In this document: piece by piece, positions 16,263-50,487 of the stretch
How the letters are laid out: each line of letters starts with the position of its first letter
Position numbering within the stretch: position 1 is the first letter of the stretch
IMG/VR virus record: IMGVR_UViG_3300025519_000044
Span: 1 to 64,000 of that record
Direction: 5' to 3' (one strand)
DNA: 64,000 nt
Source: a virus
Translations under genes and position numbers: made by a program
The notes under the pieces: model-generated
Databases searched by the model: none
What the model saw: the letters and a program-made list of their open reading frames with translations, nothing else
Told to the model about the DNA's origin: nothing

Positions 16263-16445
16263 GTGAAACACGTGAAACCAAAAACACGACAAAAGGGCGA
16301 TAAGTATCGGCCCGTCGTTACGGTGCTTAAAGTAAAGCGAGGTCTGCCCACAAAAATTATGGTAAGCGGACAAGAGTACGCGCTTATCCACAAAAACCAG
16401 TATAGGGGAGTGAGAAAATGCGGGCTGAACGCTGCTACACATTGA
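16263..16445 (+). CDS. Small hypothetical protein shared with phage B (61820-61972)
   Basis: Near-identical peptide KGDKYRPVVTVLKVKRGLPTKIMVSGQEYALIHKNQYRG. Confidence 0.7.
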   Translation: MKHVKPKTRQKGDKYRPVVTVLKVKRGLPTKIMVSGQEYALIHKNQYRGVRKCGLNAATH

Positions 16446-16882
16446 ATGAAGAAACAGAAATCCGGGTAGGGAATTGCTTCTTTACCCGAGATGATTTGAT
16501 TTTGATGTATATCGACAGCGGCATGGATGTTTTAAGTTTAGCAAAATCATTGCGTATCGGGCGGCCGAGGATGGAGCGGATATTGGACAAATTCGACATA
16601 CCAAGAAACTGGCATGCAGAATTGACACCGCGGCATCTGCGAGTGTTGCGCTATATCAAATATTTTCAGACGCGTCACAAGCGCAGCCCAACAAACTTGG
16701 AAATCTCAAAAGCATTGAGGCTATCACCTGGTTGCACGAACTACCATCTCAAAAAATTAAAAGCACACGGGTATGTAAACTGGCCAAGGTACAGCAGTGG
16801 CACATTCAAGTTAACTGAAAAAGGGGAAAGGTGGTGCCGGAATGCCCACACATTTAATCTATTCGGCTTGGAAGAAGACTAG
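16418..16882 (+). CDS. LexA DNA-binding-domain-like regulator heading the type IV operon
   Basis: LTPRHLRVLRYI..SPTNLEIS..HLKKLKAHGYV; no peptidase domain. Confidence 0.75.
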   Translation: MRAERCYTLNEETEIRVGNCFFTRDDLILMYIDSGMDVLSLAKSLRIGRPRMERILDKFDIPRNWHAELTPRHLRVLRYIKYFQTRHKRSPTNLEISKALRLSPGCTNYHLKKLKAHGYVNWPRYSSGTFKLTEKGERWCRNAHTFNLFGLEED

Positions 16883-17765
16883 GGATGAAAATGGGGTGAT
16901 TAAGCAGAACACGAAAGACGGTAAAGGAAATGTAATCATCCGGGACATTAAATTTGTGGATCCGATTAAGGAAAAAGATATGGAAGAACACGCCGGCCAA
17001 CGCTTTCTATGTGGAGAGCCAATGACACAAGGAATGAAACTTAAGAAGGTATTTTCCAACGTGTTCACTGACTGGAACATTGCTAAGAATCCGGCCGGAA
17101 CCCATGTATGTCCGGCATGCTGTTTCTCAATTTTGACCACGAAAGAACGATACGGATTGCGGACATTTTCAAATGTGGCGAATGAAGAAAGGCTTTGGCT
17201 GCCAAACCGGGTAGAGATGCGAGAATTTCTATTGCAGCCGCCTGATCCTCCATTTGTTATAAATTTGGCTGTTTCCCAGAAAAAGCACATCGCTTTTAAG
17301 GGGGAAGTGAATTATTCCCGCGACATATTTACCGTCATGTACGAAGAAATGCCGGTGCTGATCGTTAGAAAAGAGTTTGAAAGTTTACTTGCGTTGGTTG
17401 AACATTTTCTCTATGGATTTACGAAAACGGAGATAACAACCGGAGAATACAGTCAAAAACGGATTTTGGACTTTGGTATTGATGCTTGGGAAGCCTTTGA
17501 GGAACGGGTTAAGACGTACCGGGGCAACCCTATACTTGATGTCGTCATGTTTATTGCACAGAAAATTGAAAATGAGGAGGACTTGAAATGTTTTATGGTT
17601 TCAGAACTAGGGATGAAAGTGCAGGAGCTGCCGCCTTACTTGTCTACGCCGTCTACCGCAGCCGAAACCGAAAAAGAGGGCCAAGTGGCATCGACATGTG
17701 GGGACAAATCGAACGGTTCACGAAAGTCAGCGCAAAGCGAGCAATTAGCGTTGGATCTTTTTTAG
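16842..17765 (+). CDS. csf1: Type IV large subunit Csf1 (Cas8-like)
   Basis: FLCG..FTDW..VCPAC zinc region, LLQPPDPPFVI..SQKKHI; first gene of the csf cluster. Confidence 0.8.
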   Translation: MPTHLIYSAWKKTRDENGVIKQNTKDGKGNVIIRDIKFVDPIKEKDMEEHAGQRFLCGEPMTQGMKLKKVFSNVFTDWNIAKNPAGTHVCPACCFSILTTKERYGLRTFSNVANEERLWLPNRVEMREFLLQPPDPPFVINLAVSQKKHIAFKGEVNYSRDIFTVMYEEMPVLIVRKEFESLLALVEHFLYGFTKTEITTGEYSQKRILDFGIDAWEAFEERVKTYRGNPILDVVMFIAQKIENEEDLKCFMVSELGMKVQELPPYLSTPSTAAETEKEGQVASTCGDKSNGSRKSAQSEQLALDLF

Positions 17766-18061
17766 AAGCCTTTAAACGGAAAATGGCATGCGAAACGATC
17801 AATCCTAAATGGTGTGATAGTGGCAGCAAGGTAATGACGGCCATACAAGATGAATTAGGGAACATTGTCATGACTGGGAATGAGCCTGACGGCGGGAACA
17901 GACAGTTTTTAACCGAGATTATGGAAAGCGGAAAAGACCAGGCCATCCTATATGAACTATACAAAGAAACCGCGCGGGTGATTATGTTAGTCCGGGACCG
18001 TCTAGAGAGAGAAAAACCGATTGAACACAAATTAGAAACCATTATTGAGGAGGAAAATTGA
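17588..18061 (+). CDS. Type IV-B small subunit (Cas11-like)
   Basis: 157 aa helical protein between csf1 and csf2; GAGGAGG RBS. Confidence 0.65.
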   Translation: MFYGFRTRDESAGAAALLVYAVYRSRNRKRGPSGIDMWGQIERFTKVSAKRAISVGSFLEAFKRKMACETINPKWCDSGSKVMTAIQDELGNIVMTGNEPDGGNRQFLTEIMESGKDQAILYELYKETARVIMLVRDRLEREKPIEHKLETIIEEEN

Positions 18062-18062
18062 A

Positions 18063-19019
18063 ATGAACCATTACCGTTTAGAAACCATTTACACACTGCT
18101 GCAACCTTTAAGCCATATCGGGGAAAGCGAATCAACTCAAAGCTTTCTGAATACGACTACAGTCGTCAACGATGGAAAGCCGGAGGAAGTATTTGTTTAT
18201 ACGGGAAATGCTTTGAGAGGCATGCTGCGGGACTGTGGGGCGCGTTACTTACTAAACCGGTTAGATATTCGTGTCCCGTTAAAAGCCTTCCATCTGTTGT
18301 TCAGTGGCGGCTCAATCGGTGGTGCCCAGGCGCTGGATATCGATCAGGCGAAGGTAATTCGTAAAGCCCTGCCATTTGTGTCACTGTTCGGAGGAGGCGT
18401 CGGAAATCAGATTCTGGACGGCAAATTGAAGCAGACCTTTGTTTACCCTGTATGCAAAGAAACGAACAACATTATACCAAGTTATGTTGAAAAGTCCGAC
18501 TATAGTTGGAGACATTTTACAAATGTGATTGAGTTTACCCGGAAAGATGACGAGAAGAATGTGAACCTTGCAGAGCAGTTTTTAATTGGACAAACTGAAC
18601 AGCAGTTACTCGAGGGAGAAACCACCAAAAAGAAAAAAGAAAAAGACGGCCCAGCCACACAAATGCGGTATGCAGTTGAATATTTGGCAGCTGGCACGAA
18701 ACTCTGGCACCGGTGGGATATCATTTGTGATGAGCTGGAACTCGGGGCGTTTGTTTCCTGTCTGCATGAATGGCAAAAGCAGCCTTATCTTGGAGGAAAA
18801 AACGGATCCGGATTTGGACTTGTTCAAGCAGACATGGATGTGATTATTAATGGGGAAAGAAAGAAATTCGCCGATATTAGCCCGGAAACCGTTTTCCTCG
18901 GAGAAATTGCAAAAAAAGCAAAAGAAACATATGACGCTCATCTTAAAGAAATGTACGACAATTATGTCATTGATAACAAAGAGGAGTTTACAAAGCTTTT
19001 GGCAGGCGAGGTGAAATGA
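18063..19019 (+). CDS. csf2: Type IV backbone subunit Csf2 (Cas7)
   Basis: PLSHIGE, GNALRGMLRD, LLFSGG, SLFGG, QMRY..E, G-loop LGGKNGSGFG. Confidence 0.9.
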   Translation: MNHYRLETIYTLLQPLSHIGESESTQSFLNTTTVVNDGKPEEVFVYTGNALRGMLRDCGARYLLNRLDIRVPLKAFHLLFSGGSIGGAQALDIDQAKVIRKALPFVSLFGGGVGNQILDGKLKQTFVYPVCKETNNIIPSYVEKSDYSWRHFTNVIEFTRKDDEKNVNLAEQFLIGQTEQQLLEGETTKKKKEKDGPATQMRYAVEYLAAGTKLWHRWDIICDELELGAFVSCLHEWQKQPYLGGKNGSGFGLVQADMDVIINGERKKFADISPETVFLGEIAKKAKETYDAHLKEMYDNYVIDNKEEFTKLLAGEVK

Positions 19020-19699
19020 AGAATTTGAAGATCACGGCCCGTCTTTTGGACGGGCGCGTGAACTCCAATGATGGCATTTTTAATTTGGATAGTATCTTGG
19101 CTTATGCGTGGATGCTGGAAAATCATCCGGATGACTTGCAGAATAACAATTTACGGCCTGATAACGTAATTGAACCGGATTTGCCACTGGCAAAGGATGA
19201 AGATGGCCGGTGGAAAGCATCCCTCGGATTTTACGAACAACATGCTGAAATCGTTGAGTATTGGCATAAAAAAGTAAACGACTTTGACGCGGCCTATTAT
19301 GTGGACTTCCAGGGCAAACGTGGCAAGATTAACGGTGCATCCGGTGAATATAAAGCTTATCGTATGCCACAAATAATACGGGTTGTGAGTGATATTGAAT
19401 TTTATGCCGTCGGGGATCCTGACGAAATTCGGCGCCTACTTGGATATGTAACCAATATCGGTAAGAAAGCATCACAGGGCTATGGTTATGTACGAGAATG
19501 GGCCATAGAAGAAATTGAAGACGACTATACGGATATCGGGCCATATGGAATTATGCGGACACGTCCATTTACAGGCGAGCTCCCGAACGATGGACAAGCC
19601 TATCAAATTAAGAAAGTGCGTCTAAAACCGCCCTACCATTTACACATAGACCGGGTGCCATGCATTATCCCAAACGTGAGGAGAGATCAGCTTGCTTAA
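19016..19699 (+). CDS. csf3: Type IV subunit Csf3 (Cas5)
   Basis: LDSILAYA, LPL, FYAVGD..IRRLL, G-loop IGKKASQGYG. Confidence 0.87.
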   Translation: MKNLKITARLLDGRVNSNDGIFNLDSILAYAWMLENHPDDLQNNNLRPDNVIEPDLPLAKDEDGRWKASLGFYEQHAEIVEYWHKKVNDFDAAYYVDFQGKRGKINGASGEYKAYRMPQIIRVVSDIEFYAVGDPDEIRRLLGYVTNIGKKASQGYGYVREWAIEEIEDDYTDIGPYGIMRTRPFTGELPNDGQAYQIKKVRLKPPYHLHIDRVPCIIPNVRRDQLA

Positions 19700-20408
19700 A
19701 ATAAAACTTCCTGTCCAATTTGACGACGGAAAGGCTATGTATGATGCGGTATTGGCGATCATTCATAAGCAGTCTCCTGTGCTGTCTAAAATGATTCATG
19801 ATAACTACGATTACAACCCATTTAGTGTTGAGTTACCTAATATTGTAAATGTTATAGGCTTAGAGATTGAACCATTTTTTAAAAACCTGAATGGTATCGA
19901 AATATTAAGAGAAGTGTCGTATAAGGATTTAATGAACAGAAAATATGATAATCTGACAATTATGGTACAGTTTCACAATACGACGTTTTCCCGAAAAGGT
20001 TATGACACGCCTATTCCGGATCCAAACCATATTCTTTTAAGCCTTAAAGAGCGTTGGAATCAGCTTTTTCCGGATAAAATCGATATCAAAATTCCATTTC
20101 ATGGAGAAAATACAAGGGAATATACGGTAATTAAATTCTTGAATATCCATTCGGCAGCACACAAAATAGCTGACTATCGGCCATACACCGTTTTTTATGG
20201 CAAAGTGGGATTTAAATTTTACGGAGACGAGGCATACGTTCAAAAAGCAAATATTCTTTTTCGGTTTGCTGAATTTGCGGGTGTTGGACTTAAGCGGCAA
20301 ATGGGAATGGGGGTTACAAAAATATTGGCAAAAGGGGACGTGAAAACAAATGATGACAGAAGCAGAGAAAGAAACGTACATGCTGCGTGCGACGCTGCCG
20401 GGATTTAA
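19692..20408 (+). CDS. cas6: Cas6-family crRNA endoribonuclease
   Basis: YNPFSV, FHNTTF, PIPDP..SLKERWN, C-terminal FAEFAGVGLKRQMGMG G-loop. Confidence 0.82.
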   Translation: MLKIKLPVQFDDGKAMYDAVLAIIHKQSPVLSKMIHDNYDYNPFSVELPNIVNVIGLEIEPFFKNLNGIEILREVSYKDLMNRKYDNLTIMVQFHNTTFSRKGYDTPIPDPNHILLSLKERWNQLFPDKIDIKIPFHGENTREYTVIKFLNIHSAAHKIADYRPYTVFYGKVGFKFYGDEAYVQKANILFRFAEFAGVGLKRQMGMGVTKILAKGDVKTNDDRSRERNVHAACDAAGI

Positions 20409-21126
20409 AAGAAAAGTATCAAGAAGTTTAGAAATTATTCGCGAAGCACTGGCAATAGAAGGCATTAAGTGGTCTGCATCCGTTAGTTTTGGTAAAGATA
20501 GCCTTGTAATGCTCGATTTGCTAAGTCAAGTGATGGACGAAATACCCGTTTATTTTATGGACAGTGATTATAAACTCCCAGAAATATATGAAACTATTGA
20601 AAAAGCACAAGAAAGATATAAAATAAATATTAGTAAGGCCTATTTCGCAGACAGGCGCCCGATGAAAGAAGTATGGGATCAATTCGGGATCCCGGGCATT
20701 AACCGAACTACATCCATGCAAAATAAGGCACTAAAAGTATTAAAGAAAGACGTTTCCGACAGATGGGCAAAAGAAAATGGATACAACGGTATCTTTTGGG
20801 GTATCCGCAAACAGGAGTCCAGTCAACGGAAATGGATGGTCACATCATTTGGCGTGACATTTGAGAATAAGCAAGGATTTTACCGGTGCGCCCCCCTAGC
20901 CTATTGGGATGCCAGTGACATCTGGGCGTACATCGTATCGAGAAACTTGGATTATCCAAAGCTGTATGATTACCAAAAGTATCAAACCCGTGATTGGATC
21001 AGGAATACCGGTTGGGCAACGACAGACGGGGCAGAACGCGGCCGAATCGTTTGGCTTCGTGAATTTTACCCAAACTACTACGACGAATTACGGTGGATGC
21101 TGCCGAAAATAGATGAATACATTTAA
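20350..21126 (+). CDS. cysH: CysH/PAPS-reductase-family protein (type IV-B accessory)
   Basis: SVSFGKDS PP-loop, GIRKQES..R, PLAYW..DIWAYI..YPKLYD. Confidence 0.88.
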   Translation: MMTEAEKETYMLRATLPGFKRKVSRSLEIIREALAIEGIKWSASVSFGKDSLVMLDLLSQVMDEIPVYFMDSDYKLPEIYETIEKAQERYKINISKAYFADRRPMKEVWDQFGIPGINRTTSMQNKALKVLKKDVSDRWAKENGYNGIFWGIRKQESSQRKWMVTSFGVTFENKQGFYRCAPLAYWDASDIWAYIVSRNLDYPKLYDYQKYQTRDWIRNTGWATTDGAERGRIVWLREFYPNYYDELRWMLPKIDEYI

Positions 21127-46478: not shown

Positions 46479-46820
46479 GTGGATCCGTTGGAAGGATTGA
46501 CCATGGATGAAAGAATCGAAAATCATGAAACGCGGATTACCGCCTTAGAAAAAAATTACGCGGACTTGACCAACAAAATGCAGGCGGTAGAAACAGGTCA
46601 GCTGCGGATTGAAAAAACGTTGCTTGAAGAAGGAAAAGAACAGAAGAAGTTGATTAACGAGCAGCGAGAAGAACAGCAGGAGCTTTTAAATAGGCTGCTG
46701 GAGCACACACTGAACATAAAGCGAAATAACAGCTATAAAAAATGGGATTTAGCCCTTGCCCTATTTGGCGGTGGGGGCTTAATTTATGCCTTAATAAGCT
46801 TAGTTGAAAGATTTTTTTAA
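46479..46820 (+). CDS. XhlA-like lysis protein
   Basis: Coiled coil plus C-terminal TM; before the endolysin. Confidence 0.65.
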   Translation: MDPLEGLTMDERIENHETRITALEKNYADLTNKMQAVETGQLRIEKTLLEEGKEQKKLINEQREEQQELLNRLLEHTLNIKRNNSYKKWDLALALFGGGGLIYALISLVERFF

Positions 46821-46835
46821 CCATAAAGGGAAGGA

Positions 46836-47879
46836 GTGAACGCTATGAAAGGGTTTGACATTTACCATGGCAGCGGAAATGTCGATTTTAAAAAGGCATA
46901 TGCTGCCGGATACCGGATTGTGATGGTAAAAGCGACAGAGGGCAAGACATTTAAGGATCCAAAGTTTTCCGCAAACGTCAAAGCCGCAAAATCTGCCGGG
47001 TTTAAGGTGGGCGCCTACCATTTTGCCCGATTTACAAGCCCGGCGGTCGCCCGGCAGGAAGCGCGGTATTTTTATGGCGCCGTGAAAGGCTATCTCAAAT
47101 ACATGGATGAACCGTTGGTGCTGGATCTTGAGACCAACCATGCCGGCAGCCAGCTGGTCGCGTCCATGCAGGCGTTTTTTTCCGAGCTGAAAAAGCTTAC
47201 CGGTCATAGGCTCATGCTCTATAGCATGGGTTATTTTTATCTCTCAAATTTAAAAGGCCATCATCCCGGTATCCCGTTGTGGTACGCCCGATACGCATCC
47301 AGTCCAATCGGTGTGCACAGCTATTATCTATGGCAAAAGTCGCAGAGCGGGAAGGTGCCGGGGATCTCCGCCTATGTGGACATAAACGAGACAGGCCCGG
47401 ATTATCCGTCCACATTGCAGGCCGAGGTTAAAAAGGCGGCAGCTGCGGTTACTACTGCTAAAAAGGCGGCGTCCACAGCTAAGGAGACAACAACAAAGGC
47501 AGTGGCCAGGCCAACAACCGCGGTAAAAACGACGCCGTACTATGTAACGGCCGGCAAATTAAACATCCGTAAGAGCCCGGGCGGGGACGTTATCGGGCAG
47601 CTTAACCACGGCGACAGGGTGCAGGTGCTGGGCATTTCTGCAGGTTGGGCAAAACTCAAATCGGGCAGCAACGTGGTCTATGTATCTGCTAAGTATCTAT
47701 CAAAATCGCAAACTGCCACAAAGACGGCGCCGAAACCCGTTTACCACACGGTGGTACGGGGAGACACGGCGTCAGCCATTGCCAAAAAATACGGTGTCAC
47801 GCTTGCACAGTTGAAAAGCTGGAACAAGCTTGATAGCAAATACACAATCTATGTCGGTAAAAAAATCCGCGTAAAATAA
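46836..47879 (+). CDS. Endolysin (GH25 muramidase, SH3, LysM)
   Basis: KATEG, GAYHF, LDLE; LNIRKSP SH3; C-terminal LysM. Confidence 0.93.
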   Translation: MNAMKGFDIYHGSGNVDFKKAYAAGYRIVMVKATEGKTFKDPKFSANVKAAKSAGFKVGAYHFARFTSPAVARQEARYFYGAVKGYLKYMDEPLVLDLETNHAGSQLVASMQAFFSELKKLTGHRLMLYSMGYFYLSNLKGHHPGIPLWYARYASSPIGVHSYYLWQKSQSGKVPGISAYVDINETGPDYPSTLQAEVKKAAAAVTTAKKAASTAKETTTKAVARPTTAVKTTPYYVTAGKLNIRKSPGGDVIGQLNHGDRVQVLGISAGWAKLKSGSNVVYVSAKYLSKSQTATKTAPKPVYHTVVRGDTASAIAKKYGVTLAQLKSWNKLDSKYTIYVGKKIRVK

Positions 47880-47891
47880 GGAGGAAAAAAC

Positions 47892-48419
47892 ATGTTACAC
47901 ACTATTATTCAAGCAGTTTACGCAATCATTCTGGCAGGGATTCCGGCGGTGCTCGGTTATGCCGGAAGATACGCAAAGAAATTTTTGCAATCGAAACACT
48001 TGGAAGGCATCGCCATCCGCGCGGTAAAATATGCAGAACAGTTAATGCCGGAACCGGGGCAGGGCGGGGAAAAGTACCGGGCCGCGTCTCAATATCTGGC
48101 GAAAAAGGCATATCAGCTTTTCAAAGTTAACCTGGAGCCGGCCGATATCAGGGCGCTAATCGAGGCGGCGGTCAATGATCTCAACCAAGAACTTGCTACA
48201 TTTGCAGACGCGCCGGCGAAAGAAGCTGTGGAAGACGATGAACCGGCCGAGGAAACGGAACATGCCGGGGAAGAAACAGCATCAGCAGATGAACAGGTAC
48301 TCGGTGCAGTTGATGCAAATAATATTAGCGTAACGGCGGAAAACGTTGTTGCACAAGGAGCAAAAAAAGTCGGAGATATGACGCTGGAAGAATTGCGGGC
48401 GGCATTGGCGAATAAATAA
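47892..48419 (+). CDS. Holin (LL-H-like)
   Basis: N-terminal TM, AVKYAEQ..G.EK..IEAAV. Confidence 0.82.
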   Translation: MLHTIIQAVYAIILAGIPAVLGYAGRYAKKFLQSKHLEGIAIRAVKYAEQLMPEPGQGGEKYRAASQYLAKKAYQLFKVNLEPADIRALIEAAVNDLNQELATFADAPAKEAVEDDEPAEETEHAGEETASADEQVLGAVDANNISVTAENVVAQGAKKVGDMTLEELRAALANK

Positions 48420-48459
48420 GCCGGATCCGGCAATACTAATGATCCACCAGGACAAATCA

Positions 48460-48487
48460 AAAAAGCCCTCGCAAATGCGGGGGCTTG
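48460..48487. terminator. Hairpin terminator after the lysis genes
   Basis: AAAAAGCCCTCGC-AAAT-GCGGGGGCTT. Confidence 0.7.
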
Positions 48488-48513
48488 AAATTTAAAAAAT
48501 AACGTGATAATAT
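48485..48513 (+). promoter_or_regulatory. Sigma-A promoter of the solitary repeat unit
   Basis: TTGAAA-17 bp-TAATAT with extended -10 TG. Confidence 0.65.
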
Positions 48514-48525
48514 CTTTTTAAAGGT

Positions 48526-48624
48526 ATCGCGTCCTTTTAAAAAAAATGCGTGGATTGAAACTGTGAATTGGATATTTGAGCTAAGCCGAAACTGCCGGGG
48601 CTTATTCCTCGGCAGTTTTGCTTT
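48526..48624 (+). CRISPR. Solitary type I-C-like repeat, short unique segment and terminator hairpin
   Basis: ATCGCGTCCTTTTAAAAAAAATGCGTGGATTGAAAC (48526-48561) versus I-C GTCGC..GCGTGGATTGAAA(T/C); followed by AAACTGCCGGGG..CCTCGGCAGTTT. Confidence 0.65.
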
Positions 48625-48638
48625 ATAAATAAGGTCGT

Positions 48639-48673
48639 AAAACCCCTACGCCTTTAGGCTAGTGGTAGTTCAA
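48639..48673 (+). mobile_element. Possible IS200/IS605 end remnant
   Basis: AAACCCCTACGCCTTTAGGCTAGTGGTAGTTCA resembles GCCTTTAGGC-hairpin ends finishing in TTCA. Confidence 0.45.
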
Positions 48674-48694
48674 TTTTTAGCCAGAATTGCGTGG

Positions 48695-49087
48695 CTAAAT
48701 ATTTGTTTCCCAGGCATCCACAGTTGCTTTCATAGCTTCCATGGCATGTTTTTTTGTGGGAAAATGTTCTATGCCGGATTCCCCGTCATCGACATTGTAA
48801 GACGGAACTTCATCCGCATACGGATATTCCGGTCCCCAAGCGAAGAAGTAATTTCCATTTTCGGCCTTCCCGACGGCGTAGGCCTCGCCGTTATTTGGGA
48901 AGTTGTCACGCAATTCAACGATTTCTAATACCTCCACTTTCAACTCCTCCTCTTTTTCCTCTACATATTTCCTCATCAATTGTCGGATGACTTCACTCTT
49001 GTTTTGCATCAGTGCTTCATTTACGCGGTCGAACCGATCAAGAAGGTCCTGATCAATCCTGTATTGCCTCGTACGTTTCACTTTCAT
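48695..49087 (-). CDS. RHH/CopG-like N-terminus fused to an acidic domain
   Basis: RQYRIDQDLLDRF..NKSEVIRQLMRKYV; GGGAGG RBS. Confidence 0.7.
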   Translation of the reverse strand: MKVKRTRQYRIDQDLLDRFDRVNEALMQNKSEVIRQLMRKYVEEKEEELKVEVLEIVELRDNFPNNGEAYAVGKAENGNYFFAWGPEYPYADEVPSYNVDDGESGIEHFPTKKHAMEAMKATVDAWETNI

Positions 49088-49124
49088 ACCTCCCATAACC
49101 AAAAAGATGGACACAACATGCGCA

Positions 49125-49153
49125 TTGACATGATAAAAGTTTGTGATTATAAT
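49125..49153 (+). promoter_or_regulatory. Consensus sigma-A promoter of the mini-array (copy 2)
   Basis: TTGACA-17-TATAAT. Confidence 0.9.
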
Positions 49154-49158
49154 TAGTC

Positions 49159-49254
49159 CATGAACCATAACACAGGGTGTATTTAAATAGTATCTTTTTA
49201 ATTAATTAACCTGTGCTATTTTTTATTGAACCGTAACATGAGATGTAAGGGAAG
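49159..49254 (+). CRISPR. Mini CRISPR array, type I-B-like repeats, one 36-nt spacer (copy 2)
   Basis: Repeat 49159-49188, spacer 49189-49224, 3'-degenerate repeat 49225-49254, then terminator GAGGGAGCG..CGCTCTCTTTT. Confidence 0.78.
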
Positions 49255-49283
49255 AGGGAGCGAACATAAATCCGCTCTCTTTT

Positions 49284-49793
49284 CTATTTTTCCGGTTTCC
49301 CGAATTTTTCCGTAAGCGCAGTTTCTGATATAAACGTATAGGCGCCGTTACTTTTAAAATGGCCATCCGGATAATCGGCGCCGTCTATCTCTTCCACCGA
49401 TATGCCCCAAGTTTTTGCGGCATCCTTTGCTTCCCACACCTTAATGCCAAGTGGTTTAAAAGTTTTTCGCATTTCCCGGTACATTTCGTATGCTTCCGCG
49501 CGATTCTTTCGTTTGTTATTACGTTCTGCTATTATTTCCTTTATTTTATCGGCAGCCGCCAGAAACTCATCTTCATCTACTTCCCACGTTCCAACCGTTT
49601 TATAATCTGTTTGTAGTCTAGATTCGCTGTTGTCGAAAGTGGTTGACGGTAAAACCTCCCCAAGGCTGAATATGTAATCTTCCTTAACGGCATGTTCGAC
49701 AATCGCAAATGCCTCGGCAGCTTTTGGTGTCCCCTTTACAAGCTCCGGGTAAACAGTTTCGGAATAAGACGTTTCTTTATACACAATTTTCAT
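49284..49793 (-). CDS. Hypothetical protein, possible C-terminal HTH-like domain
   Basis: 169 aa; identical to 350-859. Confidence 0.75.
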   Translation of the reverse strand: MKIVYKETSYSETVYPELVKGTPKAAEAFAIVEHAVKEDYIFSLGEVLPSTTFDNSESRLQTDYKTVGTWEVDEDEFLAAADKIKEIIAERNNKRKNRAEAYEMYREMRKTFKPLGIKVWEAKDAAKTWGISVEEIDGADYPDGHFKSNGAYTFISETALTEKFGKPEK

Positions 49794-49812
49794 TTTTGTT
49801 TCCTCCTAATTT

Positions 49813-50184
49813 TTATGCGTTTATTTTAGCGCCTTTAAATCTCCAAAACGCTTTTGTTACCGGTGTATATGCGCCACGTTCTTGTGCCACAATAACACCG
49901 TTTTGCAATTCAAGAAACCCTTGTTCTTTACGGTATCCGGATCCTGTATAGTAATTTACGTATAAGCGTTCCTTCCCGTATTTTGCCCAGTAGTTAACGG
50001 AATAGGAATCGCTCTTCATTACGGAATTGATGTAGGTTTCAACATCTTCCACCGTAATTTCTTTTGCTTCTTTTGCCTCCTTCCATGCGAGCCGGAGAGA
50101 TTCTGCAAAGTATTCCTTTACCTTTCCGCCAAATTTACGTTGCCCTGCTTTAGCAATCTCCCAAGCCCGTTTCATAACGTTCAT
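49813..50184 (-). CDS. Small hypothetical phage protein
   Basis: 123 aa; minus-strand promoter at 50216-50244 (TTGACA-17-TACAAT). Confidence 0.8.
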   Translation of the reverse strand: MNVMKRAWEIAKAGQRKFGGKVKEYFAESLRLAWKEAKEAKEITVEDVETYINSVMKSDSYSVNYWAKYGKERLYVNYYTGSGYRKEQGFLELQNGVIVAQERGAYTPVTKAFWRFKGAKINA

Positions 50185-50487
50185 TTCTCTTATCTCCTTT
50201 CCTTATCTTGATTTCATTGTATCATTTTGTATGTACATTGTCAATACGTTTTTTGAATTTTTTTATTGGTTTTTGAAAAAAGTGATCCCGCCAAAAAATC
50301 CCAAAAAATTTTTTCGAGGCCTATAGACAAAATAAGCCAATTTTCTTATAATTTTGTTAGCAGGCGTTCCAATTGTCCATGTATTTGTAAAAAATACCCC
50401 CCTATGCCTGCACAAAAATAGAGCAGGTGGTTAGCCTGCTCCTTTTTTATTCATGAAAATCCTCCCCATAATCGAGGAGGAAAATGC

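Follow-up and report, generated by a model that had tools for sequence, protein, structure and literature searches.

The stretch of DNA analysed here (the window) is taken from an IMG/VR virus record of 91 kb, of which it covers the first 64 kb; its carrier is a temperate phage of the Weizmannia (Bacillus coagulans) group. We assign the phage family to Weizmannia because of its holin gene and because a related prophage (L007) sits in the genome of W. acidilactici (G001). Behind an endolysin gene and a Holin_LLH gene, and ahead of a leftward cargo operon, lies a short unit on the plus strand (48485-48624) made up of a promoter, one type I-C-like repeat whose last 11 nt form a handle, a short tail resembling a guide, and a terminator; the surroundings hold no I-C cas genes. 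All coordinates are collected in Table 1.

Among GenBank phages, blastn yields no match to positions 46800-50200. Three related prophages (L004, L005 and L007) carry the same holin gene with the unit absent after it, and we therefore regard the unit as cargo. A second copy follows a second lysis module beyond the window (G000 C1, about 86930-87050; L002 1436-1586), so that the 91-kb record seems to hold two related phage genomes. In isolate RNA libraries from two studies, contigs run from 48468 or 48535 to beyond 50200 at a high mean depth, and in the same libraries the lysis genes are without cover or about 100-fold lower. This cover is not counted as expression of the unit, since neither strand nor ends nor local depth can be read from the contigs and the leftward operon could explain it.

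Table 1. Features of the unit and its surroundings (positions in the window)
Feature	Position	Strand	Basis	Details
Type IV-B-like module	16418-21126	+		
Endolysin gene	46836-47879			
Holin_LLH gene	47892-48419		Pfam	
Terminator hairpin of the holin gene	48463-48486	+	Inverted repeat	Left border of the unit
Sigma-70-type promoter	48485-48513	+	Consensus scan	TTGAAA 48485-48490, 17-nt spacer, TAATAT 48508-48513; extended -10 TG 48505-48506
Predicted RNA start	near 48520	+		
Repeat-like element (psiR)	48524-48561	+	Rfam CRISPR-DR9	38 nt, A/U-rich loop; CGCGT 48528-48532 pairs with ATGCG 48546-48550
5' handle	48551-48561	+	3' end of repeat element	11 nt, TGGATTGAAAC
Guide (psiS)	48562-48577	+	Conserved; matches host regulator guide and G043 cas3 site	16 nt, TGTGAATTGGATATTT
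Intrinsic terminator	48583-48624	+	Fold	Stem 48587-48599 with 48607-48619, T-rich tail
Leftward cargo operon	48695-50184	-		
I-B-like mini-array	49125-49260	+		

The sequence-only reading of this region had described a promoter, a stem, a repeat-like 3' end, a unique tail and a hairpin; each of these is recovered in the same place, the one correction being the length of the repeat-like element (38 nt instead of 36 nt). The Rfam model CRISPR-DR9 aligns to the element over the model's full length of 37 positions, with 22.2 bits against a gathering score of 45. All CRISPR-DR matches in the region are sub-threshold, and further Rfam matches (leader, sRNA, miRNA) were set aside as noise. We do not attribute the resemblance to chance, because the whole unit is conserved in six further copies and has a homologue beside host type I-C cas genes (see below).

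The repeat stem counts 5 bp, of which one is a G.U pair. In six of the seven copies the stem is weak, with 5 bp (-3.4 to -4.5 kcal/mol) where the array repeats have 7 GC-rich pairs, which makes recognition by Cas5c uncertain. Cleavage by Cas5d/Cas5c leaves an 11-nt handle, and the cut is here predicted between 48550 and 48551. The 14-mer GCGTGGATTGAAAC has a single exact occurrence in the 64-kb window. The unique tail begins at 48562. The terminator hairpin (48587-48619) has 13-14 bp, is followed by TTTTGCTTT and begins about 25 nt past the handle. No second repeat is found downstream, and the unit is thus not a CRISPR mini-array.

Conservation among phages

Besides the copy in the same record, five further copies were found in IMG/VR phage contigs (L006, L003, L024, L027 and L028). 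The -35 box, TG and -10 box of the promoter are kept in six phage copies, the exception being L027, which has TTGACA-17-TATTAT in the same place. The stem is maintained throughout: the G.U pair is replaced by A-U in L006, L003, L024 and L028, a short loop gives L024 a canonical 32-nt repeat, and L027 carries a wholly different 7-bp stem (CACGCCC with GGGCGTG) with the same 16-nt guide and the same 11-nt spacing. Without exception among the phage copies, exactly 11 nt separate the end of the hairpin from the guide. Pair-preserving changes are also seen between the terminators of the two phage types. The stretch from handle to terminator hairpin measures about 18-27 nt in the phage copies versus about 43 nt in the host. 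Guide positions 1-16 are identical across the phage copies except for positions 6 and 12, giving five distinct guide variants. One more candidate (L026) was rejected as a false pattern match to a ribosome-binding site plus start codon.

A homologous regulator at the second type I-C locus of the host

A DNA search of the bacterial family with the phage unit returned one solitary site each in G041, G042 and G043, covering the repeat end and the tail. These genomes belong to the same genus as W. acidilactici G001 and make up three of its five species representatives; a pattern search across 401 sampled genomes of the order found the element in these three only. In all of them GTGCGTGGATTGAAAY closes the solitary repeat; TRTGAATTRGAARTTT comes next, and then a terminator. 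The G043 unit precedes the second I-C locus (cas3, cas5c, cas8c and cas7, all four genes scoring above the NCBIfam cut-offs) by about 200 nt. Its hairpin is short, and behind it come the handle, the guide TGTGAATTGGAAATTTA and a terminator like that of the phage. The terminators of the phage and of the G041 regulator have AAACTGCCGGG...CTCGG..GTTT in common (alignment A1), and the 3' end TGCGTGGATTGAAA is common to the phage repeat, the host regulator and the second-locus array repeat.

The target is found close by. Between the TATAAT box and the start of cas3, the opposite strand of G043 carries TTC plus the same 17 nt (L017 8849-8867), and equivalent pairs of guide and target are present in G042 and G041. 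Guide and target co-vary between the species at positions 2, 9 and 13, and the G042 guide differs from its own target by a single mismatch (position 12). The sequence-only reading had proposed to look in host cas promoters for the unique segment beside a TTC PAM; such a match exists at the I-C cas3 promoter of the host genus. The element of G041-G043 is a host Cas-regulating RNA of the CreR kind.

Upstream of the host regulator repeat we observed a conserved leader of about 100 nt and an apparent degenerate repeat (L014 1380-1500, L015 1380-1500 and, on the minus strand, L016 1640-1545), so that the host gene may be a decayed two-repeat mini-array. Of this host layout, only the second repeat with its guide and terminator is copied in the phage. 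A solitary GTGGATTGAAA in contig C6 of G001 was dismissed as chance, since it falls inside a coding region.

Pairing of the phage guides with the cas3 site

Leaving out positions 6 and 12, each phage guide is complementary to the G043 site throughout positions 1-16 (16-18 effective pairs). With the guide of the G043 regulator itself, 15 of 16 positions are shared (14 of 16 for the second-copy type), the differences being restricted to positions 6 or 12. In type I effector complexes each sixth base is flipped out and stays unpaired. These flipped-out sixth positions were also used in the analysis by Shmakov et al. (PMC10120712). For three substitution events all to fall on 2 of 16 positions, the chance is roughly (2/16)^3 = 0.002.

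In the five genomes of the genus, the G043 cas3 site is the sole match to the guide when one mismatch is allowed. Against the sites of G041 and G042 the phage guides show seed mismatches, at position 9 or at positions 2 and 13; exact pairing is seen with the target of one species representative only (G043). No self-target of the guide was found in the phage record. A search of IMG/VR for phage targets gave 11 matches to TTC plus guide, which is at chance level; none extends past nt 16, and the contigs concerned are unrelated (29-49% G+C).

Host type I-C arrays and their spacers

Cas8c is present in all five species representatives of the genus and two I-C loci in three of them (G041, G042 and G043), in line with the sequence-only reading. 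The I-C repeats end in GCGTGGATTGAAAT (array repeats in TGGATTGAAAT), and the arrays are large. The array repeat of the first locus reads GTCGCTCCCTACNTGGGGGCGTGGATTGAAAT and that of the second, as seen in G041, GTCGCACTCCATGTGAGTGCGTGGATTGAAAT. The second locus has no adjoining adaptation genes.

In four genomes of the genus, 44 of 335 I-C array spacers (about 13%) match the phage record with at most 4 mismatches, and a TTC PAM accompanies 30 of the 44 matched protospacers. All 44 are located in arrays with the first-locus repeat; in the second-locus array of G041, none of the 19 spacers matches the phage record. One protospacer can be followed directly: window positions 48217-48251 occur as a spacer between I-C repeats in an 86-nt contig of an isolate RNA library (run X16), with the TTC PAM at 48252-48254 on the reverse complement, and nearly the same spacer is present in G042.

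The first I-C locus has a CreR-like RNA of its own (L043 7425-7635 in G043, L046 6620-6820 and L045 7285-7500), encoded between cas3 and cas5c on the opposite strand. The guide of this RNA, ATATATTATATGATTT, faces a TTC-flanked target that immediately precedes the cas5c -35 box; positions 6 and 12 are the sole mismatches, and guide and target again co-vary between species. In G001 (L044 2440-3062) the gap between cas3 and cas5c is about 400 nt longer. A phage mimic of this first-locus regulator was found neither in the phage record nor in the related loci or IMG/VR.

Other CRISPR-like elements of the phage

The window holds a second CRISPR-like RNA, in which a perfect TTGACA-17-TATAAT promoter precedes an I-B-like repeat (Rfam CRISPR-DR3, 33 bits; 8-nt ATTTAAAT end), a spacer of some 36 nt and a second, degenerate repeat. 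The sequence-only reading had inferred mimicry of crRNAs of two different subtypes, which is not established. The I-B-like mini-array proves real, but no I-B-like arrays of this repeat class were found in the five genomes of the host genus, and among 44 genomes of the family only G025 has one. Nor did a search for a host homologue of the mini-array give anything significant in G001 and G041-G043.

Between the two CRISPR-like RNAs runs the leftward cargo operon, encoding a 130-aa protein with an N-terminal RHH domain (Pfam RHH_1), a 169-aa protein and a 123-aa Phage_Gp111-domain protein. Its layout resembles an acr-aca locus; no Acr family was matched. Further upstream, a type IV-B-like module comprises, in this order, a LexA-like regulator, Csf1, a 157-aa ORF, Csf2, Csf3, Cas6 and a CysH-like protein. 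Csf1 (64 bits), Csf2 (77 bits) and Csf3 (74 bits) reach E-values of 1e-17 to 1e-21 but score below the curated cut-offs, and Cas6 (Pfam, 49.8 bits) exceeds its cut-off. No array is found beside the module, and the phage Cas6 is a candidate partner of the I-B-like mini-array.

Proposed mechanism and alternative explanations

Given the host counterpart, the cas3 target, the co-variation of guide and target and the conservation of the pairing positions, we read the unit as a viral mimic of CreR. It is, in our judgement, probably a phage-borne copy of the host type I-C CreR, in other words a Cracr (Cas-repressing RNA anti-CRISPR), and most likely such an RNA would make the host CRISPR machinery switch itself off. 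Of the two options offered by the sequence-only reading (an RNA anti-CRISPR or a regulatory crRNA mimic), the regulatory form is the one supported, the host itself encoding a homologous regulator, and the evidence favours a Cracr over a pure decoy (Racr).

From the sequence we infer processing, loading into Cascade, repression of cas and relief of interference, which might proceed as follows. Transcription of the RNA would begin near 48520, in the post-lysis cargo region, at a promoter of its own, and host Cas5c would cut at the base of the short hairpin before 48551 to release the 11-nt handle. Cas7 and Cas8c would then assemble on the handle and the 16-nt guide. Because the terminator hairpin closes the RNA only about 25 nt after the handle, the resulting complex is probably shorter than normal Cascade. 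It would recognise the TTC PAM and pair over 16-18 bp just downstream of the start of the second operon (cas3-cas5c-cas8c-cas7), at positions +4 to +22 of the cas3 transcript region. As 16-18 paired bases would allow binding and not Cas3 cleavage, the complex would act as a roadblock to cas transcription. The phage RNA would also compete with crRNAs for Cas proteins.

The locus that would be silenced is the second one and the anti-phage spacers are found in first-locus arrays, so that repression alone may not protect the phage unless crRNAs are shared. Such sharing is plausible, since both loci have the same 11-nt handle. There is a small chance that the adaptation-less second I-C effector locus, which the phage RNA would silence, consumes crRNAs from the first-locus arrays.

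Competition for Cas proteins, which is to be expected in any case, could also be the whole story: a solitary repeat may act as a pure decoy of the Racr type that soaks up Cas5c and Cas7 in aberrant complexes, leaving the tail without a guiding role. A solitary repeat with its own promoter on a phage is indeed what the tested RacrIC1 looks like. A decoy, though, needs no guide, whereas the tail is kept at exactly the pairing positions (varying only at 6 and 12) and equals the guide of a host regulator with a PAM-flanked cas3 target; we consider this explanation unlikely. The partner might instead be the phage's own type IV-B-like effector, given that the phage encodes Csf1-, Csf2- and Csf3-like proteins, Cas6 and a CysH-like protein with no array beside them. 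That the unit is simply a guide for this effector appears very improbable: its repeat, guide and terminator are homologous to those of the host type I-C regulator, its handle has 11 nt as in I-C, and the I-B-like mini-array with its 8-nt ATTTAAAT end is the better fit to a Cas6 substrate. We give a small chance, somewhat better than that of a dedicated type IV guide, to a combined arrangement in which the type IV-B-like module loads the CreR mimic, the I-B-like mini-array or both, instead of or together with host Cascade. If true, the phage would possess a CRISPR-interference device complete in itself, with which it silences host cas3.

Some viral mini-arrays are directed against other viruses (PMC10120712), and the unit could accordingly be thought of as a one-spacer array that excludes superinfecting, competing phages through host Cascade. 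Yet a second repeat is lacking, conservation covers just 16 nt, the record contains no self-target and the 11 IMG/VR matches look like chance; this possibility we rate lower still than that of a type IV guide. Lowest of all, and hardly credible, is the view that the resemblance is fortuitous, or that the convergent transcripts here enclose some unrelated small RNA or a terminator region. The Rfam score below the gathering threshold and the position between a rightward and a leftward operon would agree with it, but seven copies are conserved, an identical guide stands behind a different promoter and stem in L027, and the host homologue at cas3 has a co-varying target.

Relation to known systems

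Cracr RNAs have been described as viral mimics of host CreR (Liu et al., bioRxiv 10.1101/2024.10.29.618823). These authors searched IMG/VR, define Cracrs by a place outside cas loci and at least 9 PAM-proximal matches to a CreR/CreA spacer, and list type I-C and Bacillota candidates; they report shorter spacers for the viral forms, which the short stretch from handle to hairpin in our phage copies parallels, and experimental tests for V-A, I-E and I-F only, I-C being predicted (bioRxiv 10.1101/2024.10.29.618823). Our unit is virus-encoded, lies outside a CRISPR-cas locus and shows repeat likeness, at least 9 PAM-proximal matches and a PAM-flanked cas3 site. Like the Cracrs, it appears as a crRNA-like RNA copied from a host CreR, with a degenerate repeat and a position among phage cargo genes, and its compact spacer holds a short guide that is partly complementary to a PAM-flanked cas-promoter site. 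It differs in being a single repeat closed by a terminator rather than a repeat-spacer-repeat, and in its target, the second of two I-C loci of the host genus.

Demonstrated CreR RNAs belong to I-B, I-E and V-A; for I-C they are predicted (bioRxiv 10.1101/2023.03.10.532045; bioRxiv 10.1101/2024.10.29.618823). The G041-G043 element, with its degenerate repeat beside cas and its PAM-flanked match in a cas promoter, fits both the host CreR (bioRxiv 10.1101/2023.03.10.532045) and the regulatory mini-arrays of Shmakov et al. (PMC10120712), whose viral regulatory mini-arrays are related in concept to the phage unit. Unlike a host CreR, the phage copy is located outside any cas locus; it carries a promoter of its own, its body is shortened, and it would serve the phage instead of host autoregulation. 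As to Racrs, inhibition of interference was shown for the type I-C RacrIC1 (Camara-Wilpert et al., Nature 2023, PMC10651486). The unit shares with them the solitary repeat on a phage and the promoter of its own (here within 250 bp), but Racrs are decoys that need no guide, whereas the phage unit has a conserved guide with a host target.

Conclusions

The phage trick itself has been described only recently, and the unit is a clean new example of it, not a new principle. As type I-C Cracrs have not yet been tested, it offers a ready candidate. Its compact single-repeat design, with a terminator in the place of the 3' repeat, may help in the design of minimal I-C guides. The hosts are industrial and probiotic lactic-acid bacilli, for which phage resistance matters, and their arms race with this phage is documented by the roughly 13% of sampled host spacers that match the phage record. 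If the second locus did consume crRNAs made from the arrays of the first, the two host I-C loci would be seen to divide their labour. Overall, the unit represents a well-resolved natural type I-C example of a phage that would turn host CRISPR autoregulation against the host.
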